NCBI GenBank assembly: GCA_049519175.1
Contig: JBEKQZ010000001.1
Coordinates: 17,021-81,020, forward strand
DNA: 64,000 nt
Origin: Candidatus Levyibacteriota bacterium
GTDB lineage: Bacteria > Patescibacteriota > Microgenomatia > Levybacterales > UBA12049
Reading direction: 5' to 3'
In this document: one piece after another, positions 3,173-23,165 of the stretch
Layout of the letters: each line of letters opens with the position of its first letter
Position numbering within the stretch: position 1 is the stretch's first letter
Notes under the pieces: model-generated
The model's database searches: none
Told to the model about the DNA's origin: nothing
The model's input: the letters and a program-made list of their open reading frames with translations, nothing else
Program-made: the position numbers and the translations under genes

Positions 3173-3189
3173 AAGCTATTTTAGCAATT

Positions 3190-7548: not shown

Positions 7549-7886
7549 GGTGTTAAGCTCCCTTCGGTTGTTGCTTGTAGATTGCTTGTCGAATTTCCAC
7601 TTGGAACAGGTGTTGGTGTAACGATTACCGGACTGGCGGACGGTGAAGCGGGAACAGTAACATTTTGCACTGGGACACTTAATTCATAAATTGGCGAAAC
7701 TTTTTCTCTGTTTTTTAAGCTATCAATAACACCGGTGTCAAAGTTTGGCGTTATCGGTTCAATCTGCACGCTTAAAGGGACAGAAATGGTCGAGGTAATA
7801 ATATTATGATAAATACTAAAGCCAATCCAAAGAATGGCAAAAATAAACAATGGGACAAGAATTAATAAAATATCATTTCGTTTCAT
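7545..7886 (-). CDS. Small single-TM protein with a Pro/Ser/Thr-rich tail, in the pilN-pilO operon (possible PilP-like accessory)
   Basis: 113 aa. N-terminal TM LLILVPLFIFAILWIGFSI. ATGA-type 4-nt overlap with the downstream LPPTG protein gene, and directly abuts pilO. Confidence 0.5.
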   Translation of the reverse strand: MKRNDILLILVPLFIFAILWIGFSIYHNIITSTISVPLSVQIEPITPNFDTGVIDSLKNREKVSPIYELSVPVQNVTVPASPSASPVIVTPTPVPSGNSTSNLQATTEGSLTP

Positions 7887-7887
7887 T

Positions 7888-8487
7888 TTATTGTTTAAAG
7901 AAAACTGTGCCGTTAAGACTTAATTGCAAATTGCCATTTTCGGTTGACAAAATTATCGCTTTTAAAGCCACCACTCTTTGAAAATTGGCGATTTGACTCA
8001 AAAAATTGAGAATATTTGGATAGGTTCCTGTAGCGGTGATCGTAAAATCAAAAGAAGATTGTTTTTGAGAGGATGATTGTAAAAGGGTAACTTCCGAGAT
8101 TTGGAAACTGGTAAGTGTCAAAGATGTGCTGTTGGCGATAGATTGCGCTTCCGCCACGAAAAGTGGGATTTGTGTTGTGGTGGGGACTGCGTCATTAACA
8201 ATTGGGAGATCGGGCGAAAGATTAGTATATTGCTGTTGCAAGATAGCTAGGTCGTTTATTTTTTGCTGCAGCTTTTGCTGGACAAAATTACTGTCATCAA
8301 TTTGTTTTTGCAGATTAGCAATGGTCGAAAAAGTCGGATTAATGGCAAAAAGACCAAGTATAATGGCCGTAACTAGAGTTAGAACAATGGTGATATATTT
8401 TTGCGTCTTTTCCTGTTTAAGATCCGGAATTAACGCCAAATATTTTTCATATTGTTCTTTTTTTATGGCTTTAATTTGCAGACGCAT
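7888..8487 (-). CDS. pilO: Type IV pilus assembly protein PilO-like
   Basis: 199 aa. Short cytoplasmic N-terminus, one TM (ITIVLTLVTAIILGLFAI), a Q-rich coiled coil, then a ferredoxin-like periplasmic region. Overlaps pilN by 17 nt. Confidence 0.55.
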   Translation of the reverse strand: MRLQIKAIKKEQYEKYLALIPDLKQEKTQKYITIVLTLVTAIILGLFAINPTFSTIANLQKQIDDSNFVQQKLQQKINDLAILQQQYTNLSPDLPIVNDAVPTTTQIPLFVAEAQSIANSTSLTLTSFQISEVTLLQSSSQKQSSFDFTITATGTYPNILNFLSQIANFQRVVALKAIILSTENGNLQLSLNGTVFFKQ

Positions 8488-9031
8488 TTATTCCTCCTTG
8501 TCCTTTAAGATTAGCTGTAATTCCAACGGTAATAGTCGCTTTGGCGGTATCGTTTTGGATTTTGTCTAGACTGACACTATCAATGGCAGGATAGGCTTTT
8601 AATTTATCGATAAAATCAGAAAGGGCAGTAACCGAATTAACGGTGGCGGCGATTTGCGCTTGAGTTGGAGATAAATCAAGGGTTGTATAGGTAACTCCGC
8701 TTGGTGTCAAAGCAACAATGTCCTTAAATACTTTCAAGTTTTGCGTGGAAGCTTTGGAAACGGAAGAAATTAACGCTAACCGGTCTTGTAAATTTCGGTA
8801 TTTGCTTTCGCTAGCGCTTTGATAGGCAACAATTGCCTGCTCTTGTTTTACTTTTGTGCGTAAATCCTGGAGCTGGTTGTCAAGCGAAAAACGGTATAAA
8901 AAAGCGCCAAGCGCCACCAGTTCGACAAGAATTACTAGGGCCCGGCCAATAGTTAATACCCAGGAAACAATCAAATCTAGCGTTTTATTCTTATTTTCCA
9001 ATAAATTAATAGAGGCAGAAAACTTCGCCAT
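8471..9031 (-). CDS. pilN: Type IV pilus assembly protein PilN
   Basis: 186 aa. N-terminal SINLLE (the conserved PilM-binding INLLP-type motif), a single TM, then a coiled coil. Confidence 0.65.
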   Translation of the reverse strand: MAKFSASINLLENKNKTLDLIVSWVLTIGRALVILVELVALGAFLYRFSLDNQLQDLRTKVKQEQAIVAYQSASESKYRNLQDRLALISSVSKASTQNLKVFKDIVALTPSGVTYTTLDLSPTQAQIAATVNSVTALSDFIDKLKAYPAIDSVSLDKIQNDTAKATITVGITANLKGQGGINASAN

Positions 9032-9040
9032 ACTAACTTT

Positions 9041-9069
9041 AGTCTATTGGTTTTTGAGGCTTTTGTCAA
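9041..9069 (-). promoter_or_regulatory. Sigma70-type promoter for the pilN-pilO-surface-glycan operon (TTGACA-17-TAGACT on the minus strand)
   Basis: On the minus strand: cTTGACAaaagcctcaaaaaccaaTAGACTaaagttagt ATG(pilN). Lies between the rpsT stop and the pilN start. Confidence 0.45.
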
Positions 9070-9081
9070 AGAAGAAATGAG

Positions 9082-9381
9082 CTATTTTTTGGTTTTGAGC
9101 TGTTTCTTTTTCACGACTGTCTTTTTAACAACTTTGGCTTTTGTGGTCGATTTGGATAGCTTACTAAGTCTTGATTTAATTCTGGCGGCTTTGTTTTTGT
9201 GGATTAAGCCTTTTTTAACCGCCTTATCAACCAAAGAAACGGCTCGCCTGACTTTTTCTGCGGTTTTGCTTTTTACCGCTTCTTTAACAGCGTCTTTAAA
9301 GGTTTCCCTTTGAAAATCATTTCTTTTTCGCCTTTTTTTATCCTGTCTCAATTTCTTTTTGGCTGATTTTATTACTGGCAT
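9082..9381 (-). CDS. rpsT: 30S ribosomal protein S20
   Basis: MPVIKSAKKKLRQ... with the ...GLIHKNKAAR... block typical of S20. Lys-rich C-terminal extension. Confidence 0.8.
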   Translation of the reverse strand: MPVIKSAKKKLRQDKKRRKRNDFQRETFKDAVKEAVKSKTAEKVRRAVSLVDKAVKKGLIHKNKAARIKSRLSKLSKSTTKAKVVKKTVVKKKQLKTKK

Positions 9382-9420
9382 GCGGGTATTTTAGCATGCT
9401 ATACTGTAAAAAACAACAAT

Positions 9421-11088
9421 ATGCCTAAAGATCTTTTCAAAAGGGGTCTTAGCCTTCTTTTTAAACGTCAAAATAATATTTTATCCGCCGCCTTTGTCAT
9501 AATGGCAACGATTATTTTTTCACAGGTGTTGGGGCTAATTGGACAAAGGTTGTTGGTTTCTATTTTCGGCGCCTCAAACACCTTAGGTATTTTCCTCGCT
9601 TCTACCAGGCTACCGGATTTTTTATTCCAGATTTTAATTGCCGGGGCACTGGCTTCTGCCTTTATCCCGGTTTTTTCGGAGTATATCGTTAAGGGCAAAG
9701 AACAGGAAGGTCATCAAGTCGCTTCAACTCTGCTTTTTTTAAGTTTGGGAATTTTTGCTTTTTTTTCACTCATCCTTTTTATTTTCGCCAAACAACTCTC
9801 CACCTTGATGGCGCCCGGTTTTTCCAACGCCGAGTTGGATTTATTAACCAATCTAACCAGGATTGTTATTTTTGGAGAAATACTGTTTATTATCGGTAGC
9901 TTTTTGTCGGCAATTTTGCAATCTTATAACCGCTTTTTTATTCCCGGTTTTGCGGCTGCCCTTTATAACCTTGGAATTATCATCGGTATCCTGTTGTTTT
10001 CCTCTTTCTTGGGAATTTATGCCGCCGCCTACGGCGTGGTGATTGGCGCTTTGCTGTTTGTTCTGGCGCAAATTCCACTGGCTCACAAAATGGGTTTTTC
10101 CTTTAAGCCTTCGCTTTCTCTAGAATCAATTAAATCTTCGGGAGTATTGAGTGTTTTAAAGTTAATTTGGCCACGCACAATTTCCATCGCCGTTTTTCAG
10201 CTCGGAACAATTATTACCGTCACCATTGTTTCCTTTCTGCAAGACCCGGGCAGAAATTATGTCATTTTTGATTACGCCCAAACCTTGGCTTTTGCCCCGG
10301 TCGCTTTGTTTGGTCAGGCAATAGCCCAAGCCGCTTTCCCGGTTTTGTCAAAAGAAAAAGACCGACTCGAAGATTTTAAGGTGACTTTTATCACCAGTTT
10401 TAACCAAATGCTTTATTTGGTTTTGCCGATTTCGGTTTTGCTGTTGGTTTTAAGAATTCCTATCGTCAGGCTTATTTTCGGTGCCGGGCAATTTGACTGG
10501 GCGGCGACCGTTTTAACCGGCCGGACGCTGGCTTTTTTCAGCGTTTCAATTTTTGCCCAAGCCTTAGTTTATTTGGTTGCCAGAGGTTTTTACGCTTTGC
10601 ACGATACCCGGACGCCTCTAATTATCGGCGCGGTCACAACGGTACTAATGGTAGCAATGGCAGCTTGTTTTATCTTTTTTTACCACGCCGGAGTGGAAAG
10701 TATCGCCATTGCTTATTCGGTAGCGTCAATTCTAAATTTCCTCGTTTTGTTCATTTTTCTAGACAGGAAAGTTGGCGGTTTTGCTAAACTTTCTCTTTTA
10801 AAGACAGTGACAAAAATTTTCGTAGCCACTTTTTTTACCGCTTTTGCACTGTATGTCCCGATAAAACTTTTAGACCAGTTGGTTTTCGATACCACCAAAA
10901 CTATCAATCTAATTTTACTGACCGGAATTTCCAGTAGCATCGGATTGCTGTTATACCTTTTCTTAACTTGGCTGTTTGACGTCAAAGAGGCAACGATGTT
11001 TATCATGCTGTTCAAAAAACTGGGAGATTGGAGACAAATTTTACAAGGCAGTGAAGAGACAATTGACGCGACCCAATTTAATCCCTAA
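9421..11088 (+). CDS. murJ: Lipid II flippase MurJ (MviN)
   Basis: 555 aa, 14 predicted TM helices. N-terminal block ...LLVSIFGASNTLGIFLASTRLPDFLFQILIAGALASAFIPVFSEY matches the MurJ signature. Confidence 0.85.
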   Translation: MPKDLFKRGLSLLFKRQNNILSAAFVIMATIIFSQVLGLIGQRLLVSIFGASNTLGIFLASTRLPDFLFQILIAGALASAFIPVFSEYIVKGKEQEGHQVASTLLFLSLGIFAFFSLILFIFAKQLSTLMAPGFSNAELDLLTNLTRIVIFGEILFIIGSFLSAILQSYNRFFIPGFAAALYNLGIIIGILLFSSFLGIYAAAYGVVIGALLFVLAQIPLAHKMGFSFKPSLSLESIKSSGVLSVLKLIWPRTISIAVFQLGTIITVTIVSFLQDPGRNYVIFDYAQTLAFAPVALFGQAIAQAAFPVLSKEKDRLEDFKVTFITSFNQMLYLVLPISVLLLVLRIPIVRLIFGAGQFDWAATVLTGRTLAFFSVSIFAQALVYLVARGFYALHDTRTPLIIGAVTTVLMVAMAACFIFFYHAGVESIAIAYSVASILNFLVLFIFLDRKVGGFAKLSLLKTVTKIFVATFFTAFALYVPIKLLDQLVFDTTKTINLILLTGISSSIGLLLYLFLTWLFDVKEATMFIMLFKKLGDWRQILQGSEETIDATQFNP

Positions 11089-11105
11089 AATACTCTCATC
11101 ATTTT

Positions 11106-12851
11106 ATGTCTTTTAGTAACATCCGTAATTTTGCCATCATCGCTCACGTTGACCATGGAAAATCGACGTTGGCCGACCGCTTTTTGGAAATCACCAACAC
11201 AATTCAAAAGGATAAATTAAAAGAACAATTCTTGGATCAAAACCCGATTTCTAGAGAACGTGGCATCACCATTAAATTGGCACCGGTTCGGATGAAATAT
11301 GCAGTTGATGGACAGGAATATATCCTAAATTTAATTGACACTCCTGGGCACATGGATTTTTCCTACGAAGTCTCCCGGACTCTGGCGGCTTGCGAAGGAG
11401 CAATCCTTTTGGTTGATGCCACCAAGGGAATTCAGGCCCAGACGGTAGCGCATTTCAACGCGGCCAAGAAAGAAAACTTAACCATTATTCCGGCAATTAA
11501 TAAAATCGACCTTCCCACCGCCAACACGGAAGAAGTCACTAAAGATTTAATTGAGACTTTCGGGTTTAAACAGGAAGAAATTTATTATGTTTCGGCTAAA
11601 ACCGGAGAAAACACCAGACAGCTTTTGCAGGCGGTGGTGAAAAAAATTCCAGCTCCTAAAGTAAATGACAACGCGCCTCTGCGCGGCTTAGTGTTTGACG
11701 CGGTTTTCGATGAACACCGAGGCGTAGTTATTTTTACCAAATTATTTGATGGTAGTGTTAAAAAACAAGATAAACTGGAATTTATCCAGAATAAAACTAA
11801 AGTTGACGTGTCGGAAGTAGGATTTTTCTCGCCCTTTTTAATGTCCAAAGAGGAATTAACCGCCGGAGAAATCGGCTATATTGTCACCGGCTTAAAAGAT
11901 ATCCGCAGAACCCGGGTCGGAGACACAATCACAGCCCAAAATTTAAAAGGCAAAATGCAAAACTTAAATGTTCAGCCGTTGCCTGGATACGCAACGCCAA
12001 AGCCAATGGTCTTTTTTGGCGTTTACCCGCAAACTTCCAACGAATATGTTCACTTACGGGAAGCGCTGAATAAGCTATCACTCAATGACGGCTCATTAAC
12101 TATTTCCAATGAGTATTCGGCGTTTTTGGGCAGTGGCTTTCGGGTGGGATTTTTGGGACTTTTACACGCGGAAATTGTCAAAGAAAGATTAACCAAGGAA
12201 GAAGGCGTGGAGCCGATTTTAACGATGCCCAAAGTTTTATATGAAGAAAAAGATGGAAAGATGCTGGAGCCCTACATGATCTTAACGATTTTTGTTCCTG
12301 CCAGTTTTGTCGGCGCAGTGATGACAGTGGCACAAAATAAAAAAGGCACTCTTTTAGGCATCTCTTATCATAAAAACAACGCTATTTTGCAATATGAGAT
12401 GCCTTACTCGATGTTTATCCGCGGACTTTCGCCGGATTTAAAAAGCGCCACCCAAGGTTTTGCCAGTCTAGATTATGAAATCACCGGTTACAAAGAGGCG
12501 AGGTTGGTAAAAATGGACGTTCTTATTAACGGTAGCCCGATTGATGTTTTGTCAGAGCTGGTTTACGAAGATGAAATGAGTTCTGTCGCCCGCGAAAAAA
12601 CGGAAAAATTAAAAGAACATCTGCCAAAACAACAATTTAAGCAAATCATTCAGGCGGTGGTTGGGGCAAAAATCTTGGCCAGAACGGAAATTTCTCCTTA
12701 CCGCAAAGATGTGTTAGCCAAAATGTCCGGCGGAGACAGAACTCGGAAAGATAAATTACTGGAGGCGCAGAAAAAAGGAAAGAAAAAGATGGTTAATGTT
12801 TCAAAAGTACAGATTCCCCAGAAGGCATTGCTGTCGATGCTCAGAAGCTAG
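11106..12851 (+). CDS. lepA: Elongation factor 4 (LepA)
   Basis: NFAIIAHVDHGKSTLADRFLE G-domain. 581 aa, with the LepA-specific C-terminal domain. Confidence 0.95.
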   Translation: MSFSNIRNFAIIAHVDHGKSTLADRFLEITNTIQKDKLKEQFLDQNPISRERGITIKLAPVRMKYAVDGQEYILNLIDTPGHMDFSYEVSRTLAACEGAILLVDATKGIQAQTVAHFNAAKKENLTIIPAINKIDLPTANTEEVTKDLIETFGFKQEEIYYVSAKTGENTRQLLQAVVKKIPAPKVNDNAPLRGLVFDAVFDEHRGVVIFTKLFDGSVKKQDKLEFIQNKTKVDVSEVGFFSPFLMSKEELTAGEIGYIVTGLKDIRRTRVGDTITAQNLKGKMQNLNVQPLPGYATPKPMVFFGVYPQTSNEYVHLREALNKLSLNDGSLTISNEYSAFLGSGFRVGFLGLLHAEIVKERLTKEEGVEPILTMPKVLYEEKDGKMLEPYMILTIFVPASFVGAVMTVAQNKKGTLLGISYHKNNAILQYEMPYSMFIRGLSPDLKSATQGFASLDYEITGYKEARLVKMDVLINGSPIDVLSELVYEDEMSSVAREKTEKLKEHLPKQQFKQIIQAVVGAKILARTEISPYRKDVLAKMSGGDRTRKDKLLEAQKKGKKKMVNVSKVQIPQKALLSMLRS

Positions 12852-13993
12852 AGAGCGAATAAAAGAACAGCTCCGATTAGTGTGATAACAGCTCCGATAG
12901 TCCCAACTTGCACAAGATTAGTCGGACCGGTTGGCGGAAGTGGACTGACCTGCGCAATTACCGGAGTAGGTGTCGGTGTAGGCGTTGCGGTCGGAGCAGC
13001 CACAACGGTTGTAGTTCCTCCACCGGCGGTAATAGTGACAGAGCAATTAGCAGAACTACTCACGGCATTGTTGGCGTCGGTTAAGGTTGCGGTAGCAGTA
13101 TATGTGCCGGCGGTTGTATAGGAATGAGATTGTAAAACGCTGACGGAATTTGTACCTATTCCACCGGAGCCTGTAATATCTTGAGATTGACTGTCACCAA
13201 AATTAAAAGTAACTTTACTAATAGTGGAATTGCTACTTGAACCGGTAACGGTTAAATTCGTAGCCAAAGGCACTGCCCCGGAAGTGTTGTCGGCTGTCAG
13301 ACTTGAACAGGTTGGGGCGGCGCTAGACTGTGTCGAGGTCGGTGTCGGCGTTAAGGTCTCCGTAGGCGTCAACGTTTCTGTCGGCGTAGTTGTCACATTT
13401 GTGCCGGCAATTATCGTTAAAGCGGCTGGATTCGCGCTGGCCAAAACATTTTCGCTGGACTGGTCACTTGTGCCCAAAGATAAGACCTGTGTATCGTTGC
13501 CAAAGGTAATTTGAGTTGGACCAGAATCTGTCGTCGCAATCGCTTTAAAAGTAATAGTACCAATAGTCGTTGTCTGTTGCACTACTTGAGAGGGATCCCC
13601 GCCGGCAGAAAGAGTAATGGAAATTGTTCCGTTTCCGTAGGTTGGCCCCTGTAAAATATCCGGTAAAACATGCGTTGGGTTGACGGTAGTATTGGTGACG
13701 ATAAGACCCGCTCCGTCCGTTGCCAATTTTGTGCTGTCATACATGATTGTAAATTTGACGTAAGAAACCAGATTAGAGGTGGTAGCGGTAGCCGGATCAA
13801 CTTGAATGTTGAGATTGACATCGTCGCCAACGTGAATTGGCGCTTGCGATGCCGGAAGAATGCTGATCGTCGTCGCTGCCACGGCCGAGCTCTTAGTTTT
13901 TTGTTGTTGTTGGACCAAGAAGACGGTGACCGGAATTGCAACGAGCAAAACTACAATAAAGCCAATTAAAAGAATTTTCTTCATTGAAGACAT
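12848..13993 (-). CDS. Secreted surface protein (cohesin-like domain, Pro/Thr linker, PKD domain) ending in an LPPTG sorting signal plus TM segment
   Basis: Signal anchor MSSMKKILLIGFIVVLLVAIPV. Cohesin-like N-domain. TPTETLTPTETLTPTPTS linker. PKD-like ...HSYTTAGTYTATATLTDANNAV.... C-terminus ...VSPLPPTGPTNLVQVGTIGAVITLIGAVLLFAL. Convergent 4-nt overlap with lepA. Confidence 0.7.
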   Translation of the reverse strand: MSSMKKILLIGFIVVLLVAIPVTVFLVQQQQKTKSSAVAATTISILPASQAPIHVGDDVNLNIQVDPATATTSNLVSYVKFTIMYDSTKLATDGAGLIVTNTTVNPTHVLPDILQGPTYGNGTISITLSAGGDPSQVVQQTTTIGTITFKAIATTDSGPTQITFGNDTQVLSLGTSDQSSENVLASANPAALTIIAGTNVTTTPTETLTPTETLTPTPTSTQSSAAPTCSSLTADNTSGAVPLATNLTVTGSSSNSTISKVTFNFGDSQSQDITGSGGIGTNSVSVLQSHSYTTAGTYTATATLTDANNAVSSSANCSVTITAGGGTTTVVAAPTATPTPTPTPVIAQVSPLPPTGPTNLVQVGTIGAVITLIGAVLLFAL

Positions 13994-14046
13994 AATATTA
14001 TAAGTAAATCGTATCTTACCTGATGATAAGTGTCAAGTGAAAAGTA

Positions 14047-16157: not shown

Positions 16158-16988
16158 ATGAAAAAAGTATTTTACATTCTTTCCCCAGTTGTTTTAGTCG
16201 TTTTAATTTTTGCCGCGATTTTACTTTTTCTAGCACAAAACAAAGGTAAAGGTGCTTTACAAGTAACCTCTGTACCGGTGGCCAATGTTTATTTAGACGG
16301 GAAATTATTGGGACAAACTCCGCTTTGTCAGTGTGAATTAAAAGATATGTTAACGGTTGGCGATTACACTTTAAGATTAGTGCCAACTCAAGGAGGATTT
16401 GAACCGTTTGAGCAAAAAATTACCATTGCGCCAAAAGTGCTAACAGTAGTTGACCAAACTTTTGCTGGACAGGGACTAGGTAGCGGCAGCGTTATCAATC
16501 TAACTCCGCTTACGGATGCTAAAGATATGCAGCTTTCAATTGTTTCGTTTCCGGGCAACGCGCAGGTTTTTCTGGATGATAATCCGGTGGGACAAACACC
16601 GCTTCTTTTGCAAAATATTACCGAGTCGGACCATGAATTAAAACTTTCGAAAGTTGGTTATAAAGATAAAATTATCAGAATCAAAACTACGCCCGGTTAT
16701 AAACTGGAAGCCTTAGTTTTTTTAGGCATTAATCCGGACGTTGCCGCCGCCACCGCTTCTGCTGCTTCGGCTTCAGCCAATTTACCGGTGGCCAAAGTTC
16801 TCATCTTACAAACTCCGACGGGTTTTTTAAGAGTGAGAGACCAGCCGTCTTTAGGTGGAAACGAAATAACCCAGGTAAAACCGGGGGAAACTTATCAACT
16901 GCTCGACGAGCGGACGGATTGGTATCAAATAAAACTCACCAATGGGCAAACTGGTTGGATTAGCTCCGAATATGCCCAAAAACAATAG
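16158..16988 (+). CDS. Secreted protein with two PEGA-like repeats and a C-terminal bacterial SH3 (SH3b) domain
   Basis: Signal anchor. VTSVPVANVYLDGKLLGQTP and IVSFPGNAQVFLDDNPVGQTP (PEGA-like). C-terminal ...RVRDQPSLGGNEITQVKPGETYQLLDERTDWYQIKLTNGQTGWISSEY (SH3b-like). Confidence 0.6.
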   Translation: MKKVFYILSPVVLVVLIFAAILLFLAQNKGKGALQVTSVPVANVYLDGKLLGQTPLCQCELKDMLTVGDYTLRLVPTQGGFEPFEQKITIAPKVLTVVDQTFAGQGLGSGSVINLTPLTDAKDMQLSIVSFPGNAQVFLDDNPVGQTPLLLQNITESDHELKLSKVGYKDKIIRIKTTPGYKLEALVFLGINPDVAAATASAASASANLPVAKVLILQTPTGFLRVRDQPSLGGNEITQVKPGETYQLLDERTDWYQIKLTNGQTGWISSEYAQKQ

Positions 16989-16990
16989 GA

Positions 16991-17938
16991 TTAACTGGGG
17001 TTGATGAAGTAAACTAAAGCAATTACCAAAATAGTCCAAATTACAACAGTGACCAATAATGGTCGGTCGGATAAAAGCACTTTCTCCGGACTTTCACCCT
17101 CATTTTTTTCATAAATATCCTGTAAATAACGCATTAGCCCATAAACGACCGGAATAATAGTTATCATCAACCATTTTCTTTGGAAAAAAGCCGGCAAGAA
17201 ATCCGGCATTAAAACGCCGATTGAAAGTTTAAACCCGGTCGGATTTTCCAAAAAAGTAAACAGCGCATAAGAAATAAAAGTCGAGGTGGCAAAAATAGAA
17301 GCATAAACATCCAACAGCCTTTCGGAATAATGAGATAAAGATTGTCTGGTAGCGGCAAGATCAAAATTTTTGGTGCCCGATAAAAGGGTGAGTTCGCTTC
17401 TTCGTTTACCAATTGCCAAGAAAAGCGAAATCGAAATTGTCGTTAACAAAAGCCAGACCGAAATATGGTAACCGCTGGCAAATTCTCCGGCATAAACCCG
17501 CAAAATATAGCCGGCGGCAATTAAAAGGATGTCAATAACCGCCACACTTTTTAAGAATGAGGAGTACAAAAATTGCATGACAAGATAGACTATTACTAAA
17601 ATGAAAAACGCGGGAGTAATCACTGCTGCCACGGAAAGAGAAACTATTATCAAGAAAGCGGCGATGATGATTGCCAGAAGAACCGGAACGTCCCCGTGAG
17701 CGATTGGTCGAAATCTTTTAAACGGGTGCAGTTTATCTTTTTTCGCATCAAAAATATCATTAATGACATAAGTGGCGCTGGATAATCCGCAAAACACAAA
17801 AAAGCCCAAGATTACTTTGGGCAGAACTGTTGGATCAAAAAGCTCGCCGGTAAAAGTTATGGCGGCAAAGATAGCCAAATTTTTAATCCATTGTCTTGGC
17901 CGCAAGAGCCGAAATATGTTATATGCTAGTTTCATCAT
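16991..17938 (-). CDS. UbiA-family prenyl-phosphate phosphoribosyltransferase (decaprenyl-phosphate 5-phosphoribosyltransferase-like, Rv3806c type)
   Basis: 315 aa, 8-9 TM. LRPRQWIKNLAIFAAITFTGELFDP...YVINDIFDAKKDKLHPFKRFRPIAHGDV (NDxxDxxxD motif plus the downstream RPIAxG block typical of DPPR synthase homologues). Confidence 0.6.
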   Translation of the reverse strand: MMKLAYNIFRLLRPRQWIKNLAIFAAITFTGELFDPTVLPKVILGFFVFCGLSSATYVINDIFDAKKDKLHPFKRFRPIAHGDVPVLLAIIIAAFLIIVSLSVAAVITPAFFILVIVYLVMQFLYSSFLKSVAVIDILLIAAGYILRVYAGEFASGYHISVWLLLTTISISLFLAIGKRRSELTLLSGTKNFDLAATRQSLSHYSERLLDVYASIFATSTFISYALFTFLENPTGFKLSIGVLMPDFLPAFFQRKWLMITIIPVVYGLMRYLQDIYEKNEGESPEKVLLSDRPLLVTVVIWTILVIALVYFINPS

Positions 17939-18995
17939 CGACGCGTTTTAGTAAAAATTGTAAGAAAAGTATAGTACCTCCGGCTAGAATTACCAGCATG
18001 ATAATTGCGAACAACTTTCCTTTGCTAGATAAGACTAGCGATAATGCGCCTAATATAGCAGAAATAGTCCAATAAAACAACGCAATCCGCCTTTGCCCAA
18101 AACCAAGGCTCAACAAGAGATGATGAAGATGTTTTTTGTCATGCCAAAAAGGAGATTTGCCGGATAAAATTCTTCTGGCAATTGTTATAAAACCGTCGGT
18201 CATCGGCACTCCCATTACCAAAATTGCCGTGGCCAATTTTGCGCCGGAAAGAATTGAAGCAACTGCCAAGATTAAATAAATGGCGGTTGCGCCGTAGCCG
18301 GGGAAAATTTTTGCCGGGTAAAAATTGTAGATCAAAAAACCTAAAGACGCGCCGGCAACAATAAAAGACAGCGCCGCCGCTGTGGCACTGGTTTGGTCAA
18401 GATGAGAAAAGCGAAGACTTAAGATGCCGATCACAATCGCCGAAATGGCCACAATTCCCGGCATCTGTCCGTCAACGCCTTTACTCCAATTTAACATATT
18501 CATGACCCAAACAATCCAAAGAACAGCGATTAAATCACCAGCAAAACTAATCACGGCGCCGTTAAGAAAGGGAAGTTGTAAATGACTAAAATTCAAAATC
18601 CCACCTAAAGGATTGGTAATAAAAGGAACGTTGGCGCCCATAAAAACGACGAAAACAGCGCAACAAATATTAATGACAAATCTTAAATATGGGGAAAGGT
18701 CGTATTTATCATCGACAACGCCGATTAGAAGCGAAGCGAAAGCCGCAATTAAAGTCGCAATAATTACTTTTGTCATTGGCAAAAAGAAAATACTGGCGAC
18801 TAACACTCCTATAAAAAGCGGAATTCCTCCGCCCCTCGGGATTATTTTTTCATGAATTATCGCGGGGTGCTGGTGCTTTTTAGGATCGTCAACAATATCC
18901 AGTTTTTTAAGAGCAACAAGACTTAAGGGCGTTGCGATAGCTGTGATTAGAAAAGAGAAAATTAAAGGGAAAATTGTAATATTTAAATTAAACAT
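17919..18995 (-). CDS. GT4-family polyprenyl-phosphate N-acetylhexosamine-1-phosphate transferase (WecA/TagO-like; MraY superfamily)
   Basis: 358 aa, about 10 TM. ...IPRGGGIPLFIGVL..., ...VGVVDDKYDLSPYLRF..., ...NMLNWSKGVDGQMPG.... Lacks the MraY-specific KxGTPTMGG block. Confidence 0.65.
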   Translation of the reverse strand: MFNLNITIFPLIFSFLITAIATPLSLVALKKLDIVDDPKKHQHPAIIHEKIIPRGGGIPLFIGVLVASIFFLPMTKVIIATLIAAFASLLIGVVDDKYDLSPYLRFVINICCAVFVVFMGANVPFITNPLGGILNFSHLQLPFLNGAVISFAGDLIAVLWIVWVMNMLNWSKGVDGQMPGIVAISAIVIGILSLRFSHLDQTSATAAALSFIVAGASLGFLIYNFYPAKIFPGYGATAIYLILAVASILSGAKLATAILVMGVPMTDGFITIARRILSGKSPFWHDKKHLHHLLLSLGFGQRRIALFYWTISAILGALSLVLSSKGKLFAIIMLVILAGGTILFLQFLLKRVDDETSI

Positions 18996-19348
18996 TAACT
19001 AATTTGCAGGATGATTTTAATAATAAAAAGAAAATTCATAAATGCCAAAATAAGCGTCACTGCGGCTACCATTCTGGCGATTAACGGACTTTTATTATAA
19101 ACAATTGAGGTAAAAATAAGGTTAAAAATAAATATCAAACCAAAGATAATGGTCGGAATAAAAATTCCCGGTGTTGCCGTAAGCCGGTCATTGCCCCAGG
19201 GAAGTTGGTTAAAGATGGGAATAAATGGAGGAAGGTTATGGTAACTTAGCAATATATATACAACAGTAAAAAGTGTTAACAGAAAACTAATCAAAAACCC
19301 ACGTAGTGCCAATTTATCGGAAGCGATATTATTAATAAAGTTTTTCAT
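18995..19348 (-). CDS. Small 3-4 TM membrane protein (possible GtrA-like flippase accessory)
   Basis: 117 aa, hydrophobic. Sits between the WecA-like and GT-C genes with 1-nt and 17-nt overlaps. Confidence 0.45.
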   Translation of the reverse strand: MKNFINNIASDKLALRGFLISFLLTLFTVVYILLSYHNLPPFIPIFNQLPWGNDRLTATPGIFIPTIIFGLIFIFNLIFTSIVYNKSPLIARMVAAVTLILAFMNFLFIIKIILQIS

Positions 19349-20816
19349 AAATATTTACTCCCTCAATATTTATTCGCCTGTCGTATCCGGCCAGCGAAAA
19401 GGGAAACTTGGAAACATTTGGCATTACCACAATAAATTTAGGTTTCGCCGTATCCAGTCCTGCCTTCGTGTTGCTATAACCGTCTTTGTAACTGGTGATA
19501 TGATAAGCCACCGTATACTTGCCCGGAGGAAGTTTATTTGTTAGCTTATAAACTTGTGCATTATTGCCCCAAATAAATAGATTATCGGAAGTTTTGGCAG
19601 ACAGATTGATAAAGTTGGCAATTTCGTAATCGCGGGGAGTACTTTGGTCAAAGAAGCTTTCATATGCGGTAACGCTTTGCTTATTCAATATAAACGCCGC
19701 AAAATTTTGATAGTAAAAAATAGTCTTAAAATAGAAGGAAAAACTTAGTAAAACTGCGATAAACGTAGCTAACATTAGCACTCCGGCCAGTTTGGAAAAG
19801 TGTTTGTTTAACATAAAAAGTCCGATGGTCAAACAAAAAGCGGGAAGTAAAACCAAAACATAATGCGTATAAGATCTTTGCGAAAAGTAGGCATTAAAAA
19901 GTGAAAAGGAAAGCCAAAGAGTAACAAAAGCAAAAGGCAGTCCGTAAATTTTCCTTTTCCAAAAAATAAAGAGCGAGAAGCTTCCTAAAAGTATTAATTT
20001 AAAAATTAGAAACCCCTGGGGAATAATAAATTGGTTGCCGTAACTGACATAGCCGATGTTAGAAAATAGAGTGGCGGTTAAAAAATCTTTAAAGGCGTGA
20101 GTAAAAAGAAAATAACAAGCCGTAATTGTAATGGGGATAATAAAGCCAATAGTAAAAGGCGCCAGATTTTTGATTTCATTTACTAAATTCTCAACTTTAA
20201 AAATATCTAAGAACCTTTTGGAATAATTGGCAAAGAATAAAAATCCGGCAAAAGCGGCAAAATCAAAAACTGCGACGATTTTAAACAGAAAAGACAACCC
20301 CAAGACTATGCCGGCTGATAACAGTATCAAGTATCTAGTATTTAGTATTTTGGTGTCTAGAGATCGCAGGACTAAGTATCCGGCGGAAATATTCAAAAGC
20401 AACATAAAATTTTCCGCGTTGGCGATATTGCCTTCGATTAAAGGCAGACCGAATAAAATAGCAAAGAGAAGTGTTATTACGAAACTAACCTTAGGATTGG
20501 CAAATAATCTTTTGCAAAGATAATAAAAGACGATAACCGATAATAGTCCGAAGATTAAAGACAAAAGCCGAATCATAAACTGGTCTGAATTAACGAAGCT
20601 ATAGAGAAGATAAAGTAGCGGTGGTTTGTTATCAAAAATGTCGCGGTATAAAAGCCGACCGGCTCTAATTGCGATTCCCAAGGTTTGATAGACCCCTTCG
20701 TCTCCATACCAGTCGGGCTCAAAAAGCGAGGGAAGCCGCAGGATAAAGAAAACTAAAGAAGCAGCGATTAAAAACCAGATGTCCCGGCTCTTTTCCAATT
20801 TTGCCAATAATTTCAT
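19332..20816 (-). CDS. GT-C fold membrane glycosyltransferase (ArnT/PMT-like, family 39 type)
   Basis: 494 aa, multi-TM. YGDEGVY acidic motif after TM1 (the DE motif of GT-C polyprenyl-P-sugar-dependent transferases). Confidence 0.6.
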   Translation of the reverse strand: MKLLAKLEKSRDIWFLIAASLVFFILRLPSLFEPDWYGDEGVYQTLGIAIRAGRLLYRDIFDNKPPLLYLLYSFVNSDQFMIRLLSLIFGLLSVIVFYYLCKRLFANPKVSFVITLLFAILFGLPLIEGNIANAENFMLLLNISAGYLVLRSLDTKILNTRYLILLSAGIVLGLSFLFKIVAVFDFAAFAGFLFFANYSKRFLDIFKVENLVNEIKNLAPFTIGFIIPITITACYFLFTHAFKDFLTATLFSNIGYVSYGNQFIIPQGFLIFKLILLGSFSLFIFWKRKIYGLPFAFVTLWLSFSLFNAYFSQRSYTHYVLVLLPAFCLTIGLFMLNKHFSKLAGVLMLATFIAVLLSFSFYFKTIFYYQNFAAFILNKQSVTAYESFFDQSTPRDYEIANFINLSAKTSDNLFIWGNNAQVYKLTNKLPPGKYTVAYHITSYKDGYSNTKAGLDTAKPKFIVVMPNVSKFPFSLAGYDRRINIEGVNIYEKLY

Positions 20817-20818
20817 AA

Positions 20819-22315
20819 TTACAGTTTTTCGGTAACCTTATATTCCAAACGTTTACCCAGCATTAATTGCGTGTGTGAAATCAGCGCCGGTAGCGCGGAG
20901 AGAAAAAAGCCAACGAGCGGAAGAAGCAAAAATTCCAACGGAAATAATAGTTGCCTTGTTTTTGAATGTTTCATAATATGTTTTGGTCTTTGCCGGTAGT
21001 CAATAATAAACATCATCAGTATTGCGACCAGGCAAAGCGTTAAGATAAAACCCGCCAATCTTGGTAAGTTGTAGCCAAGGGTGGTTCGGGAGAATACCGG
21101 ATTGACGAAAGGCATAATATTAGCTGCTATCGTTATTATGAACCAGTTAACCGGCCAAAGGAAGTGGTCGAGCAAAACATTAAAAAGCATCATAGTTTTT
21201 CTGACAAAAGGAACTCCCGGAACGGTAAACCACCATTTTATAAATAGAGCATCGTCGGAGGCACCCCAGCTCCAGCGTCTTTCCTGTTGATATTTATTTT
21301 TCAGTGATTTGATGTAAGAAGAAGAAAGAGGCGCATCCATTGAAGTTTTCAAAAATATCGGTTCCATATCCACTTGCCCTTGTTTTTGAAAAAAGGCTTT
21401 AAAGAAAATCCGGTAATCTTCCGGAATAACGTCGGTATCCCAGTAACCAATTTCACGCAACAGCTTAAATGATAAAGAATATGTGGAATTGGAAACCAAC
21501 CTGTCTTTTTGCACCAAAAGGCCGGTTCGCCAAAGACTGCCGAAAAAGGCTACAATCCTAACCGCCGCCGGCACATTCCAGAAATTATTATAATTTACAT
21601 TGGCGGATTGCCAAAATTTGCTATACTTTTTCTCATCCTTTAAGAAACTGGCAGTAAGATAGGCAAAATATTGAGGGTCAAAGATGGAATCGGCATCAAC
21701 AGATGAAATCGTGGCGTAATCCAGGTCGATAATGCCGGCTTTTACTAATTTTTTATAAGCCAGTTTTCCGCCAAACGCTTCATTGGAAGATTTACCTTTG
21801 ACTTCGCCTTCAATGTCCGGATGGAAACTCGCCATCACAATCCCGAATTTCTTTCCAAACTCGGCCATTAATTTTTCCGCCCTATCTTTGGCTTCCATTT
21901 CTCTTTTTTCCATTGCCAGAACAACGTAAATTCTTTTAGTGGGGAAAGTTTGATTACTTAAGCTTTGAAGGGTTTGTCTTAATTTTTCTAAGCTTTCCTT
22001 GTAGTTGGGTATAACGACGACGTGGGATATTTTTTCAAAATTTTCCAGCGGCTTTGTTAATTTTAGCCAATCTTGTTTTTCCGCTTGCTTAATTTTTCGG
22101 GAAGCAATGAAGGCAGTAATGGCCAACGAAAAAGATTTATAGAACCAATAAACATCAAAAAATAAAATGAAATAGGCGACGGCCAGAGGAATTAAGAAAG
22201 AACCCCAAACCGGAAATAAAATTAAAAACCAAGAGACAAAACCGGGTAATATTTCCAGCGCCCGTCTGGTTTTTACGGGATAACGGGTGAAAACGGTGTT
22301 AAAAAAACTTGTCAT
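20819..22315 (-). CDS. Membrane-embedded family 2 glycosyltransferase (processive GT2-like)
   Basis: 498 aa. N-terminal TMs, HVVVIPNYKESLEKL GT-A domain, SSVDADSIFD (DxD), and C-terminal TM bundle. Confidence 0.65.
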   Translation of the reverse strand: MTSFFNTVFTRYPVKTRRALEILPGFVSWFLILFPVWGSFLIPLAVAYFILFFDVYWFYKSFSLAITAFIASRKIKQAEKQDWLKLTKPLENFEKISHVVVIPNYKESLEKLRQTLQSLSNQTFPTKRIYVVLAMEKREMEAKDRAEKLMAEFGKKFGIVMASFHPDIEGEVKGKSSNEAFGGKLAYKKLVKAGIIDLDYATISSVDADSIFDPQYFAYLTASFLKDEKKYSKFWQSANVNYNNFWNVPAAVRIVAFFGSLWRTGLLVQKDRLVSNSTYSLSFKLLREIGYWDTDVIPEDYRIFFKAFFQKQGQVDMEPIFLKTSMDAPLSSSYIKSLKNKYQQERRWSWGASDDALFIKWWFTVPGVPFVRKTMMLFNVLLDHFLWPVNWFIITIAANIMPFVNPVFSRTTLGYNLPRLAGFILTLCLVAILMMFIIDYRQRPKHIMKHSKTRQLLFPLEFLLLPLVGFFLSALPALISHTQLMLGKRLEYKVTEKL

Positions 22316-23106
22316 AATTTAAAAACTCTTTTGGCGTTAGCAGATGTGATTTCGTTAACCACATCAAAAGCAGTGTTTTTAATTTTTGCTATGGAATTAC
22401 CCACAATTATAACATAGCCAGGTTCGTTTCGGCTACCGCGGTGGGGATCGGGCGTTAAATAAGGGGAATCGGTTTCGGTTATAATTTTTCCAAGCGGCGC
22501 CTTGGCGACCAAATCGGAAAGCAAAGTATCTTCTCCCGGTGCTAATCCTTTATAGGTAATGTTGCCGTCAAAACCAACGTAAAATCCCAGCGCCAAAACT
22601 TTTTCCAAATACTCTATATTTCCCGCAAAGCAATGAAACATGCCGGGAATTTCCAGCAGCTCATTTTTATACTGTGAAACAATTTTCAAAATATCAATGC
22701 CTGCGTGGCGTCCGTGAATTTGTAGAGGCAGTTTGTTTTCGATTGAAATCTCAACTTGTCTTTTAAAAATTTCCCGTTGCAATTTTGGATCGGTAATCCC
22801 ATTTGACTTATAACTGTAATAATCCATGCCGACTTCGCCAATGCCAACCACTTTTGGCATTTTGGCCAAAGCGTCAATTTGTTTATCCCAACCCTTGGTA
22901 ACCTTATCGGCATGGTGCGGATGAATACCAACAACTGCATATAAATTTTCATATTTTTGCGCCAGCTCAACTGCTTTCTGACTTGACTCAAGTGAAGTGC
23001 CAGCGTTAATAATGATTTCGACTCCTTGCTCAGAAGCTCTCTTTATCGCTTCGTCGTAGTTTTTAGCAAAAGCCTGAAAATTTAAGTGGCAATGCGCATC
23101 AATCAT
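22312..23106 (-). CDS. TatD-family metal-dependent hydrolase/DNase
   Basis: MIDAHCHLNFQAF...GVEIIINAGT.... The canonical TatD start is at the ATG at 23106; the ORF-track start at 23133 adds 9 non-conserved residues. Confidence 0.8.
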   Translation of the reverse strand: MIDAHCHLNFQAFAKNYDEAIKRASEQGVEIIINAGTSLESSQKAVELAQKYENLYAVVGIHPHHADKVTKGWDKQIDALAKMPKVVGIGEVGMDYYSYKSNGITDPKLQREIFKRQVEISIENKLPLQIHGRHAGIDILKIVSQYKNELLEIPGMFHCFAGNIEYLEKVLALGFYVGFDGNITYKGLAPGEDTLLSDLVAKAPLGKIITETDSPYLTPDPHRGSRNEPGYVIIVGNSIAKIKNTAFDVVNEITSANAKRVFKL

Positions 23107-23165
23107 CAGTTTTATTATACGCCAAAATGACAATTTAAGGAGCGTAATAAAAGTTTAGCTAGAGG

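Follow-up and report, generated by a model that had tools for sequence, protein, structure and literature searches.

Pentofuranose donors of the type discussed here are known from two kinds of system. The arabinogalactan locus of Mycobacterium tuberculosis encodes AftB, Rv3806c, the phosphatase Rv3807c and GlfT2; WecA, DprE1/E2 and Rv3789 are encoded elsewhere. In the three-component pentofuranose modification of Citrobacter youngae O1, the components are ORF15 (PPPRS-PRP), ORF14 (MATE) and ORF12 (GT-C/GT136) (Kelly et al. 2024, PMC11127046). The comparator locus L086 (MT837543) is a compact three-component pentofuranose system with HAD, SMR/EamA, NAD-epimerase and DUF6044 proteins; in this canonical arrangement, the HAD, SMR and epimerase genes adjoin the UbiA gene. 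A further point of reference is the O-antigen of Salmonella O:54, whose assembly by WbbE/WbbF is WecA-primed and synthase-dependent.

The locus examined here lies within a 64-kb window, the whole stretch of DNA analysed, from the genome of an uncultured member of Candidatus Levybacteria (Microgenomates, CPR). All five minus-strand genes that the sequence-only reading had assigned to a glycan block are present (Table 1). They form a tightly packed operon with overlapping genes; from the GT2 gene onwards, a 2-nt gap is followed by overlaps of 17, 1 and 20 nt. The matches to UbiA, Glycos_transf_4, PMT_2/PMT and Glyco_trans_2_3 each exceed the curated Pfam cut-off.

Table 1. Genes of the glycan operon and its immediate neighbours (positions within the window).
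Feature	Coordinates	Strand	Length (aa)	Matches and remarks
TatD-family hydrolase	22312-23133	minus		Pfam TatD_DNase, 253 bits; TIGR00010, 255.8 bits
GT2	20819-22315	minus	498	Pfam Glyco_trans_2_3
GT-C	19332-20816	minus	494	Pfam PMT_2/PMT; small C-terminal extracytoplasmic domain
Small three-TM membrane protein	18995-19348	minus	117	no Pfam match
GT4/PNPT	17919-18995	minus	358	Pfam Glycos_transf_4
UbiA-family protein	16991-17938	minus	315	Pfam UbiA
Membrane-anchored PEGA x2 + SH3b protein	16158-16988	plus		Pfam PEGA, SH3_3

The identity of the UbiA-fold protein provides the firmest starting point. Its sequence strongly supports assignment as a polyprenyl-phosphate 5-phosphoribosyltransferase (PPPRS or DPPR-synthase, Rv3806c type), as the sequence-only reading had proposed; its product is very probably a sugar donor in which ribose is carried on a lipid. 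The NCBIfam equivalogs NF008977 and NF008978 score 237.1 bits (cut-off 234) and 235.5 bits (cut-off 207), while the best model for anything other than a phosphoribosyltransferase reaches 53 bits. phmmer aligns the protein with M. tuberculosis Rv3806c (PDB 8j8j) along its full length, at E=1.9e-43. Both sequence blocks named at the outset, NDxxDxxxD and RPIAHG, are found, as NDIFDAKKD (N60..D68) and FRPIAHG. Among the 15 residues of Rv3806c that experiments have tied to PRPP, Mg or lipid phosphate (PMC10994848), 14 are kept, namely R22, K28, Y70, N73, D74, D77, D81, K87, R90, Q135, Y138, K143, Y157 and K191, with K208, replaced by Gln, as the sole difference. These 14 are essentially invariant across 70 sequences, one of which has a gap at R22. 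They include the phosphoribose-specific K28, Y70, Q135 and Y157, which are not conserved in true UbiA prenyltransferases (PMC10994848) and are invariant in the present family.

The gene arrangement is not a chance one, since tblastn recovers the same colinear five-gene block in essentially all of 71 species-level Levybacteria loci (about 70 species), each of sufficient length to reveal it. Relative to the window, median identities are 71.7% for UbiA, 70.9% for GT2 and 66.1% for GT4, against 68.1% for GroEL, 63.9% for LepA and 65.5% for MurJ; the three glycan proteins are thus about as conserved as GroEL. In distant CPR contigs, GT2–PNPT (fused or split)–UbiA recurs in four (L079, L080, L081 and L083), and a fifth, L082, carries the small module, PNPT and UbiA. 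The evolutionary core of the module is GT2, PNPT (with its three-helix module) and UbiA. In L079 and L083, genes of the Wzy_C family occur close to the module, which fits a lipid-PP-linked glycan.

Two neighbours are conserved as well. The TatD gene, immediately upstream, overlaps the GT2 start by 4 nt, is syntenic in 55 Levybacteria loci as well as in L079 and L081, and is probably co-transcribed with the operon; there is no evidence that TatD acts in the glycan pathway. The PEGA/SH3b gene is convergent and outside the operon. It adjoins UbiA in 69 of the 71 Levybacteria loci and in L081 and L082, and lies within a few kb in L080 and L083; its product may be a wall- or polymer-binding partner. 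Other genes in the window encode an LCP protein, a sortase, MurJ, GlmS, PilN/PilO-like proteins and, at 12848-13993 and 6124-7548, surface proteins of the LPPTG type whose long linkers are rich in Thr and Pro.

Taken as a whole, the operon suggests that Levybacteria make a cell-surface polymer that contains pentose, is strongly conserved and has yet to be described. In the main reading, to which we give a probability of about 0.5, it encodes a housekeeping cell-envelope glycan route of a monoderm CPR bacterium, in which a pentofuranose donor and a GT-C serve a glycan that is primed by the PNPT and elongated by the GT2. The first step has strong support: at the cytoplasmic face, the UbiA-fold enzyme would convert PRPP and polyprenyl phosphate to polyprenyl-P-ribofuranose-5-P. 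An enzyme from outside the operon would then strip the 5-phosphate, and the lipid-linked pentofuranose would be flipped. It counts against this scheme that no 5'-phosphatase (HAD PRP or PAP2), epimerase or SMR/GtrA/MATE flippase is present in the operon or recognised in the 64-kb window; as there is no epimerase nearby, ribofuranose rather than arabinofuranose is taken as the default sugar. At the outer face, judging by operon membership and by the precedent of a PPPRS and a GT-C in extracytoplasmic pentofuranosylation (PMC11127046), the GT-C would glycosylate an acceptor from polyprenyl-P-pentofuranose. This acceptor would most likely be a glycan begun on polyprenyl phosphate by the PNPT, working with the 117-aa protein as its separately encoded N-terminal three-helix module. 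The PgaC-like GT2 would elongate and export the glycan, in a manner resembling WecA-primed, synthase-dependent pathways, and the LCP ligase encoded 16 kb away could join the product to peptidoglycan. The linker-unit-primed polymer suggested by the sequence-only reading is a putative product.

In principle, the pentofuranose could have another destination. The GT-C is a PMT_2/GT39-like glycosyltransferase, its predicted fold being confirmed, and it resembles mannosyl/Ara4N-type (ArnT-type) GT-Cs more than the mycobacterial arabinofuranosyltransferases (Aft/Emb), a point against the main reading. It might move pentofuranose from the polyprenyl-P donor to the Ser/Thr-rich linkers of surface proteins or pilins, leaving GT2 and PNPT to serve a separate glycan. 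The LPPTG-type proteins, sortase and PilN/PilO-like genes of the window are in keeping with this; the LPPTG-type protein at 12848-13993 is syntenic with the block, and Pseudomonas pilin Araf glycosylation is a proposed precedent (cited in PMC11127046). We nevertheless consider such O-pentofuranosylation unlikely. Neither a MIR nor any other peptide-binding domain is detected, and the tightest evolutionary linkage is GT2–PNPT–UbiA, not GT-C–UbiA. The latter link is the weaker one, which tells against the main reading too, because one Levybacteria locus (L013) and several distant relatives have no GT-C in the block; in L083 its orthologue (E=1.6e-77) adjoins the module on the opposite strand. 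The GT-C lies outside the evolutionary core and has joined the operon in Levybacteria.

The priming step assumed in the main reading depends on the PNPT, for which the earlier label of WecA-like GT4 holds at superfamily level only. Pfam Glycos_transf_4 scores 87.8 bits; the NCBIfam WecA model gives 96.8 bits (cut-off 326) and the identity to E. coli WecA is 24%. Nor is the protein MraY proper, in line with the sequence-only reading: the MraY model scores 42 bits (cut-off 192), and the loop is a WecA-like 'IPRGGGIP' with no KxGTPTMGG. The DD, NxxN, DG (second Asp of DGxDG) and HxHH ('HLHH') motifs are kept, but two canonical acidic residues are replaced. WecA D156 becomes Lys ('NWSKGVDGQ'), and the Mg-binding Asp (WecA D217, AaMraY D265, DPAGT1 D252) becomes Tyr ('IFPGYGAT'). 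Among 65 orthologues, this Tyr never varies, and no acidic residue occurs at position 156, which has Lys or, rarely, Thr. The roughly 45 closest representatives at 50% identity show correlated changes of D156 to K/N/S and D217 to Y/F, while more distant ones are canonical. These comparisons place the protein in a divergent PNPT clade that resembles WecA/TagO more than MraY and whose active site is non-canonical.

The 117-aa protein belongs with this enzyme: it is the N-terminal three-helix module of the PNPT subfamily, here encoded by a gene of its own. Its AF2 model (pLDDT 85.6) has three TM helices, and its family shares the invariant loop LPPFIPIFNQLPWG. A word-indexed search returns 199 homologues, all without a name. 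In many relatives the module is fused to the PNPT: the family HMM aligns with the N-terminal ~100-115 residues of 19 longer PNPTs (411-523 aa; E 5e-14 to 1.6e-4), and separate homologues of 123 and 130 aa stand directly upstream of PNPT in L081 and L082. The protein is not like GtrA, the flippase type (Rv3789) to which the sequence-only reading had compared it: it has three rather than four TM helices, the GtrA Pfam finds none of 54 family members, and hhalign gives 0.66% for the E. coli GtrA homologue YfdG. There is likewise no SMR or MATE signal in the protein.

Without the Mg-binding Asp, the PNPT might use another donor or be inactive, which likewise counts against the main reading. The loss of two acidic metal/pyrophosphate-site residues, together with the gain of a three-helix module, could mean that it is not a UDP-HexNAc-1-P transferase at all, and that it takes some other donor or acceptor, perhaps the phosphoribosyl-lipid product of UbiA, or acts as a non-catalytic scaffold for GT2 and UbiA; if so, the operon would yield a new type of lipid or polymer that contains phosphoribose. 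The fixed, correlated replacements and the gene order, with PNPT overlapping UbiA and UbiA following PNPT in L079-L083, are consistent with this. DPAGT1 itself, however, lacks the first Asp of DGxDG (its motif is NxxNxxAGxNG), the other motifs are kept, the PNPT is strongly constrained (66% median identity), and the alternative chemistry has no precedent. The Asp at the position of D217 is important for catalysis; it is a Mg ligand in DPAGT1, and in MraY it stands beside the bound Mg (PMC5039524, PMC6218659). Yet the DPAGT1 variant D252N surpasses the wild type in activity and D252A retains 7% (PMC6218659), so an enzyme that has lost the carboxylate may still be active. On balance, a departure from UDP-HexNAc chemistry seems distinctly improbable.

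Elongation in the main reading falls to the GT2, whose sequence indicates a membrane-embedded enzyme of the synthase class with PgaC/IcaA-like architecture, as its earlier description as processive had implied. Pfam Glyco_trans_2_3 scores 37.4 (cut-off 27). For E. coli PgaC, hhalign gives 88.6% over 348 columns, C-terminal TM region included, and places PNYKE, DAD, PEDYR and QERRW on the PgaC motifs; the D/DxD/ED/QxxRW residues are invariant in 30 orthologues, and there are hydrophobic segments at both ends. The D,D,D,QxxRW signature of the Glyco_trans_2_3 family is also common to lipid glycosyltransferases, such as glucosylceramide and monoglucosyl-diacylglycerol synthases. The NCBIfam PgaC_IcaA match (residues 66-478, E=2e-9) reaches 36.7 bits, far below its cut-off of 422, and no PDB homologue that would fix the subfamily is found by sequence or profile. 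A lipoglycan or glycolipid route, with GT2 building a membrane anchor that is decorated outside, could accommodate these points. It has a slim chance at best, given the full-length PgaC alignment, and co-occurrence with a PNPT, plus Wzy_C genes in relatives, suggests polyprenyl-linked intermediates.

The generic Pfam family, the only one matched, and the many JGI records named '4-hydroxybenzoate polyprenyltransferase' might suggest instead that the UbiA protein prenylates an aromatic or lipid substrate in the usual way, as MenA, UbiA, heme O synthase or DGGGP synthase do. This reading is effectively refuted by ubiA, cyoE/ctaB, chlorophyll synthase and DGGGP synthase models at 17-53 bits (cut-offs 180-350) and by the full set of phosphoribose-binding residues.

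Compared with M. tuberculosis, the Levybacteria operon has a UbiA protein of the same family as Rv3806c, with the same PRPP-dependent chemistry predicted from residue conservation; its PPPRS gene likewise adjoins GT-C and GT2 genes, and a PNPT initiator belongs to the overall pathway. Unlike in M. tuberculosis, there is no PAP2 phosphatase, DprE1/DprE2 epimerase pair or GtrA-type Rv3789 homologue near the operon, the GT2 is a membrane synthase rather than a soluble GlfT2-type enzyme, the GT-C is nearer to mannosyltransferase/ArnT-type folds than to Aft/Emb, and the host is a CPR bacterium with a genome of probably ~0.6-1 Mb. With the three-component systems (PMC11127046), the operon shares a PPPRS and a GT-C in one locus and the expected use of a polyprenyl-P-Ribf donor outside the membrane. 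It differs from them in having no fused or adjacent HAD phosphatase, MATE/SMR flippase or epimerase, and its GT-C is unrelated at the profile level (0.4%) to the DUF6044 protein in the GT-C position of L086.

The PNPT shares with E. coli WecA/TagO-type enzymes the Glycos_transf_4 family, a 10-11 TM layout, the DD/NxxN/DG/HxHH motifs and the 'IPxxGGI' loop. It departs from WecA in its low identity, a score far below the equivalog cut-off, the two replaced Asp residues, and the extra three-TM module, a separate gene here and an N-terminal fusion in relatives. The GT2 resembles PgaC/IcaA processive synthases in motif set and TM architecture, with very remote overall similarity. As in WecA-primed Salmonella O:54, the PNPT has a GT2 of the synthase class as its partner. 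Finally, whereas the three-component systems are variable cassettes for antigen diversification, the Levybacteria operon is core, syntenic and highly conserved among housekeeping genes.

The glycan block consists of five genes on the minus strand, encoding a GT2 glycosyltransferase, a GT-C, a 117-aa membrane protein, a GT4 protein of the polyprenyl-phosphate sugar-phosphate transferase (PNPT) superfamily and a UbiA protein. Reading of the ORFs reproduced exactly the positions and strand proposed in the sequence-only reading (see table). GT2 and GT-C are separated by 2 nt, and the following junctions (GT-C to small protein, small protein to GT4, GT4 to UbiA) overlap by 17, 1 and 20 nt. Upstream lies a TatD-family hydrolase gene whose overlap with GT2, at the start codon, is 4 nt; its position is kept in 55 Levybacteria loci and in two more distant CPR contigs (L079 and L081), presumably because MetRS and TatD are common neighbours and not because TatD acts in the pathway. 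Promoter-like sites are not enriched and the many terminator-like matches fall within coding sequence, and operon boundaries cannot be drawn from them; neither Rfam nor tRNA scanning gave a match in the window. The nearest homologues of the block proteins come from MAGs of Candidatus Levybacteria/Levyibacteriota (Microgenomates, Patescibacteria).

Features of the glycan block, its surroundings and related loci (a locus handle marks features outside the window)
Feature	Positions	Strand	Length	Remarks
GT2	20819-22315	minus	498 aa	Pfam Glyco_trans_2_3 above curated cut-off
GT-C	19332-20816	minus	494 aa	Pfam PMT_2/PMT above curated cut-off
Small membrane protein	18995-19348	minus	117 aa	Pfam: no match
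GT4 (PNPT)	17919-18995	minus	358 aa	Pfam Glycos_transf_4 above curated cut-off; in altered-site clade with representatives P0362-P0414
UbiA	16991-17938	minus	315 aa	Pfam UbiA above curated cut-off
TatD-family hydrolase	22312-23133	minus		
PEGA/SH3b protein	16158-16988	plus		Membrane-anchored; two PEGA domains, C-terminal SH3b
First glycan locus	1043-6127; 1-1050	minus; plus		
FAD oxidoreductase (first glycan locus)	4841-6127		428 aa	Amine-oxidase fold; uncharacterised PRK07233 family, 389 bits
LPPTG + TM surface protein	12848-13993	minus		Sortase substrate
LPPTG + TM surface protein	6124-7548	minus		Sortase substrate
Sortase	50590-51321	minus		
Thymidine/AMP phosphorylase homologue	49185-50462	minus		Archaeal type; NF003338 459 bits, under AMP_phos equivalog cut-off
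L013 (MFNL01000001.1), block	7097-10945			GT2, then small protein, PNPT, UbiA; GT-C absent from block
L079, arrangement				TatD–GT2–(fused PNPT)–UbiA
L080, arrangement				GT2-like–(fused PNPT)–UbiA
L081, arrangement				TatD–GT2–small–PNPT–UbiA–PEGA/SH3
L082, arrangement				small–PNPT–UbiA–PEGA/SH3
L083, arrangement				GT-C orthologue (opposite strand); GT2–(fused PNPT)–UbiA–CYTH
L083, CYTH-domain gene	10440-11096			Triphosphate-tunnel phosphohydrolase; directly after UbiA
L083, Wzy_C-family gene(s)	12660-14024			Ligase/polymerase-like; few kb downstream of UbiA
L079, Wzy_C-family gene(s)	11525-13453			Ligase/polymerase-like; few kb downstream of UbiA
L086 (MT837543.1), cassette	898-5419			In row: UbiA-like PPPRS 293 aa, HAD phosphatase 199 aa, SMR/EamA-like 118 aa, NAD-dependent epimerase 321 aa, DUF6044 565 aa

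The UbiA protein is of the type of M. tuberculosis Rv3806c, the decaprenyl-phosphate 5-phosphoribosyltransferase (DPPR synthase), as had been proposed from the sequence. It passes the cut-offs of both NCBIfam DPPRS equivalogs (NF008977, 237.1 bits, cut-off 234; NF008978, 235.5 bits, cut-off 207), the second-ranked NCBIfam family being the HAD-fused UbiA type, and its alignment with the solved structure of Rv3806c covers the full length (8j8j; E=1.9e-43). With models for true prenyltransferases (ubiA, heme O synthase, chlorophyll synthase, DGGGP synthase, EboC) it reaches 17-53 bits where 180-350 would be needed, and 53 bits is also the best score of any model other than the phosphoribosyltransferase type. 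The protein does not group with menaquinone, heme O or archaeal lipid prenyltransferases, and an ordinary aromatic or lipid prenyltransferase is effectively excluded when these scores are set against the 235-237 bits of the DPPRS models.

Functional residues were taken from the cryo-EM study of the mycobacterial enzyme (PMC10994848). Fourteen of them (R22, K28, Y70, N73, D74, D77, D81, K87, R90, Q135, Y138, K143, Y157 and K191 in Rv3806c numbering) recur unchanged in the window protein and are essentially invariant among 70 Levybacteria sequences, R22 being gapped in one. The sole difference is at K208, where the window protein has Q and 52 of the 70 have K. The Mg/PRPP site is complete, with N73 and D77 of the NDxxDxxxD motif together with R22, K87, R90, K143 and Y138; the residues that bind the phosphoribose and the acceptor phosphate (K28, Y70, Q135, Y157, K191) are likewise identical and invariant. 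UbiA prenyltransferases do not conserve the residues that bind phosphoribose (PMC10994848), and finding them in the window protein speaks directly for PRPP-dependent chemistry. Assignment to the family is in itself not new, since the NCBI pipeline already annotates these proteins as ‘decaprenyl-phosphate phosphoribosyltransferase’ and as ‘glycosyltransferase family 39 protein’.

Across 71 species-level Levybacteria loci the order TatD–GT2–GT-C–small–GT4–UbiA, followed by PEGA/SH3, GroEL/ES, an LPPTG protein, LepA and MurJ, is kept, and only L013 lacks the GT-C in the block. Median identities to the window proteins are 71.7% for UbiA, 70.9% for GT2, 68.1% for GroEL, 66.1% for GT4, 65.5% for MurJ, 63.9% for LepA, 51.1% for GT-C and 45.1% for the small protein. 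In the more distant CPR contigs L079-L083, the block proteins share about 45% identity with those of the window. The arrangements that recur in these contigs therefore define an evolutionary core of GT2, PNPT (with its module) and UbiA; the GT-C, also absent from the block in L079 and L081, is an associated yet movable member. The linkage of the PEGA/SH3b gene to UbiA is conserved: the two adjoin in nearly all Levybacteria loci and in L081 and L082, and are within a few kb of each other in L080 and L083. Many MAG records among the relatives (L005, L011, L012, L016-L020 and others, with CAY.../CAZ... accessions) are titled ‘uncultured Gammaproteobacteria bacterium’ and carry the Levybacteria-type block at 70-78% protein identity; these titles look taxonomically wrong.

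In the window, the housekeeping neighbours are GroES/EL, LepA, MurJ, MetRS, MetK, HrcA-GrpE-DnaK, GlmS and RpoB/C, and the envelope genes are of monoderm type (LCP ligase, sortase, LPPTG proteins, PilN/O-like genes). The first glycan locus comprises a DUF2298/Chlor_Arch_YYY membrane protein (709 aa; TIGR03662, 517 bits), a second PMT_2 GT-C (552 aa) and the FAD oxidoreductase, and borders on an LCP glycopolymer ligase that the window start truncates (381 aa in the complete contig). The two LPPTG surface proteins have long Thr/Pro-rich linkers (TPTETLTPTETLTPTPTST; PSVTPTPSVILTPSPTLTPKVTPT), which are plausible targets for O-glycosylation, and the gene at 12848-13993 keeps its synteny with the glycan block in the majority of Levybacteria loci.

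For the GT-C of the block, the fold is confirmed; the first extracytoplasmic loop carries an acidic motif, and an invariant EPxWYGDE motif stands after TM1. Against the PDB, the single sequence gave no match and a profile gave two insignificant ones; only the fold search was informative. The fold proves a GT-C enzyme of the class whose donors are polyprenyl-(P/PP)-linked, but says nothing on which sugar is donated. Such an enzyme, being GT39-like, might transfer a pentofuranose to protein, and the Thr/Pro-rich linkers would be acceptors of a suitable kind; with the GT-C movable and the PNPT and GT2 in the core, protein O-pentofuranosylation is considered unlikely. The GT2 has the invariant motifs of a processive synthase, namely P103-N104-E107 (PNYKE), D207/D209 (DAD), E299-D300 (PEDYR) and Q344-R347-W348 (QERRW), and its TM segments (19-58 and 420-480) flank the catalytic GT-A domain. 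Comparison with E. coli PgaC by hhalign gave 88.6% probability over 348 columns, motif on motif; the PgaC/IcaA equivalog scores 36.7 bits (cut-off 422), so that the protein is a member of no named equivalog, and neither the single sequence nor a profile matched the PDB.

The GT4 protein matches Pfam Glycos_transf_4 at 87.8 bits (cut-off 27) and has the DD, NxxN and HxHH motifs. It had been described as WecA-like, and it is indeed nearer to WecA (TIGR02380, 96.8 bits, cut-off 326) than to MraY (TIGR00445, 42.2 bits, cut-off 192), but it lies far under both cut-offs and its active site is non-canonical. Grouping with MraY proper is not seen: the loop reads IIPRGGGIP in place of KxGTPTMGG, and KKHLHHLL stands where MraY has PxHHHxE. 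In alignment with E. coli WecA and MraY, NWSKGVDGQ replaces NxxDGxDGL (WecA D156 to Lys) and IFPGYGAT replaces VFMGDxGS (WecA D217 to Tyr), and both the Mg-binding Asp of (V/I)F(M/V)GD and the first Asp of DGxDG are missing. Across 65 orthologues, the Tyr at D217 is invariant and the D156 position is never acidic (Lys, rarely Thr). The Asp equivalent to WecA D217 (AaMraY D265, BsMraY D231, DPAGT1 D252) coordinates Mg in DPAGT1 and adjoins the bound Mg ion in MraY, and it is important for catalysis in both enzymes. In DPAGT1, the D252N variant is hyperactive and the D252A variant retains 7% activity (PMC5039524, PMC6218659).

An exhaustive phmmer search of 1.84 billion representatives returned 323 matches at E<=1e-30. 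The roughly 45 closest 50%-identity representatives have K/N/S at the D156 site and Y/F at the D217 site, the losses being correlated, whereas more distant ones are canonical D/D/D(E). The window GT4 therefore belongs to a distinct PNPT clade, for which HexNAc-1-phosphate transfer is a putative activity. Loss of these acidic residues would also fit a non-canonical role, possibly coupled to the phosphoribosyl lipid; given the retained DD, NxxN and HxHH motifs, such a departure is rather improbable.

Members of the altered-site clade often carry an N-terminal three-TM module bearing an LPxxIPLWYxxPWG loop, and this bears on the 117-aa protein. The latter has about 200 detectable homologues, none of them named; its AF2 model is confident (pLDDT 85.6) and has three TM helices, in agreement with hydropathy, with an invariant LPPFIPIFNQLPWG loop between TM1 and TM2. 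The sequence-only reading had placed it as a GtrA-type flippase like Rv3789. That role is not borne out: none of 54 family members matches GtrA (PF04138) at E<=10, hhalign gives 0.66% against the GtrA homologue YfdG of E. coli, and there are three helices rather than four; profile comparison with an SMR-like protein gave 0.07%. Among the 150 closest non-Levybacteria PNPT representatives, 23 have an extra ~125-145 N-terminal residues, and in 19 of these the HMM of the 117-aa family covers the N-terminus nearly end to end (E 5e-14 to 1.6e-4). In L081 and L082, a separate homologue of 123 aa or 130 aa lies directly upstream of the PNPT. Given fusion in some genomes and adjacency in others, the 117-aa protein is the split N-terminal module of the altered-site PNPT clade.

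Several steps would have to be supplied from elsewhere. No 5'-phosphatase of the HAD or PAP2 type is found in the operon or recognised among the window ORFs read or scanned, and the same ORFs yielded no epimerase (FAD_binding_4, SDR or NAD-epimerase). A dedicated MATE, SMR or GtrA flippase is likewise absent from the block and was not recognised elsewhere in the window, and the window has no PRPP synthetase. TatD was considered as the missing phosphatase, but nothing was found to support this and it is also absent from the block of L083. The FAD oxidoreductase, the sole flavoprotein recognised in the window, was rejected as a DprE1 analogue, its fold being of the amine-oxidase rather than the VAO type. 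In the distant contigs, the CYTH gene is a candidate for the missing phosphatase and the Wzy_C genes are candidates for the outer-face transfer step; the phosphorylase homologue of the window is a possible source of ribose-1,5-bisphosphate in CPR nucleotide salvage.

In the proposed scheme, UbiA, judged by homology, very probably converts PRPP and polyprenyl-P to polyprenyl-P-ribose-5-P. The lipid-linked sugar may then be dephosphorylated and flipped by proteins encoded outside the operon and used at the outer face by the GT-C. The acceptor would be a glycan primed by the PNPT and elongated by the GT2 synthase, which the LCP ligase could attach to the wall. As no epimerase lies nearby, the sugar would by default be ribofuranose. 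The model of a linker-unit-primed polymer drawn from the sequence is essentially retained as an inference, changed in two points: the small protein is reassigned, and the PNPT is treated as atypical. At its fullest, for which we would give odds of roughly one in four, this reading holds that Microgenomates-type CPR have an essential, previously undescribed envelope-polymer pathway, in which a PRPP-dependent polyprenyl-phosphate 5-phosphoribosyltransferase (PPPRS) is functionally coupled to a synthase-class GT2 and to a PNPT clade that has lost its Mg-binding Asp and gained a dedicated three-helix module with an extracytoplasmic LPxxIPLWYxxPWG loop. The product would be a wall polymer containing ribofuranose or ribose phosphate, functionally analogous to teichoic acid or arabinogalactan and made by chemistry unlike that of the mycobacterial and enterobacterial systems. 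A lipoglycan route is considered improbable.

A large part of bacterial diversity belongs to the CPR/Patescibacteria, and to our knowledge their cell-envelope chemistry is almost unknown. So far, polyprenyl-phospho-pentofuranose donors are documented for the cell wall of the Corynebacterineae (a drug-target pathway), for Pseudomonas pilin and for accessory O-antigen side chains. Literature searches tying CPR, Patescibacteria or Levybacteria to DPPR synthase or this pathway found nothing. New here are the core operon context in a CPR phylum, conserved at the level of GroEL, the recurrent GT2–PNPT–UbiA module, and the PNPT clade with its altered metal site and split or fused three-helix module. 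Finding the committed PPPRS enzyme in a phylum-wide syntenic operon of this conservation, with a PNPT and a synthase-type GT2, suggests a pentofuranose-bearing polymer as a core envelope component of ultra-small CPR bacteria. The PNPT clade bears on the workings of a superfamily of antibiotic targets, and the operon supplies concrete, testable enzymes.

Known three-component polyprenyl-P-pentofuranose systems consist of a PPPRS, a flippase, a GT-C and a phosphatase, with or without an epimerase; the parts other than PPPRS and GT-C were not found beside the window PPPRS. The epimerase is optional and sets the sugar, DprE1/E2 leading to Araf and ORF13-like proteins to Xylf. A compact, complete-looking pentofuranose cassette is present in the comparator L086, an unannotated and unverified ‘Bacteriophage sp.’ fragment from human faeces; its SMR-like protein and its DUF6044 protein have no profile-level relation to the 117-aa protein and the GT-C of the window, respectively. 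What the window shares with the three-component systems is that PPPRS and GT-C are encoded together.
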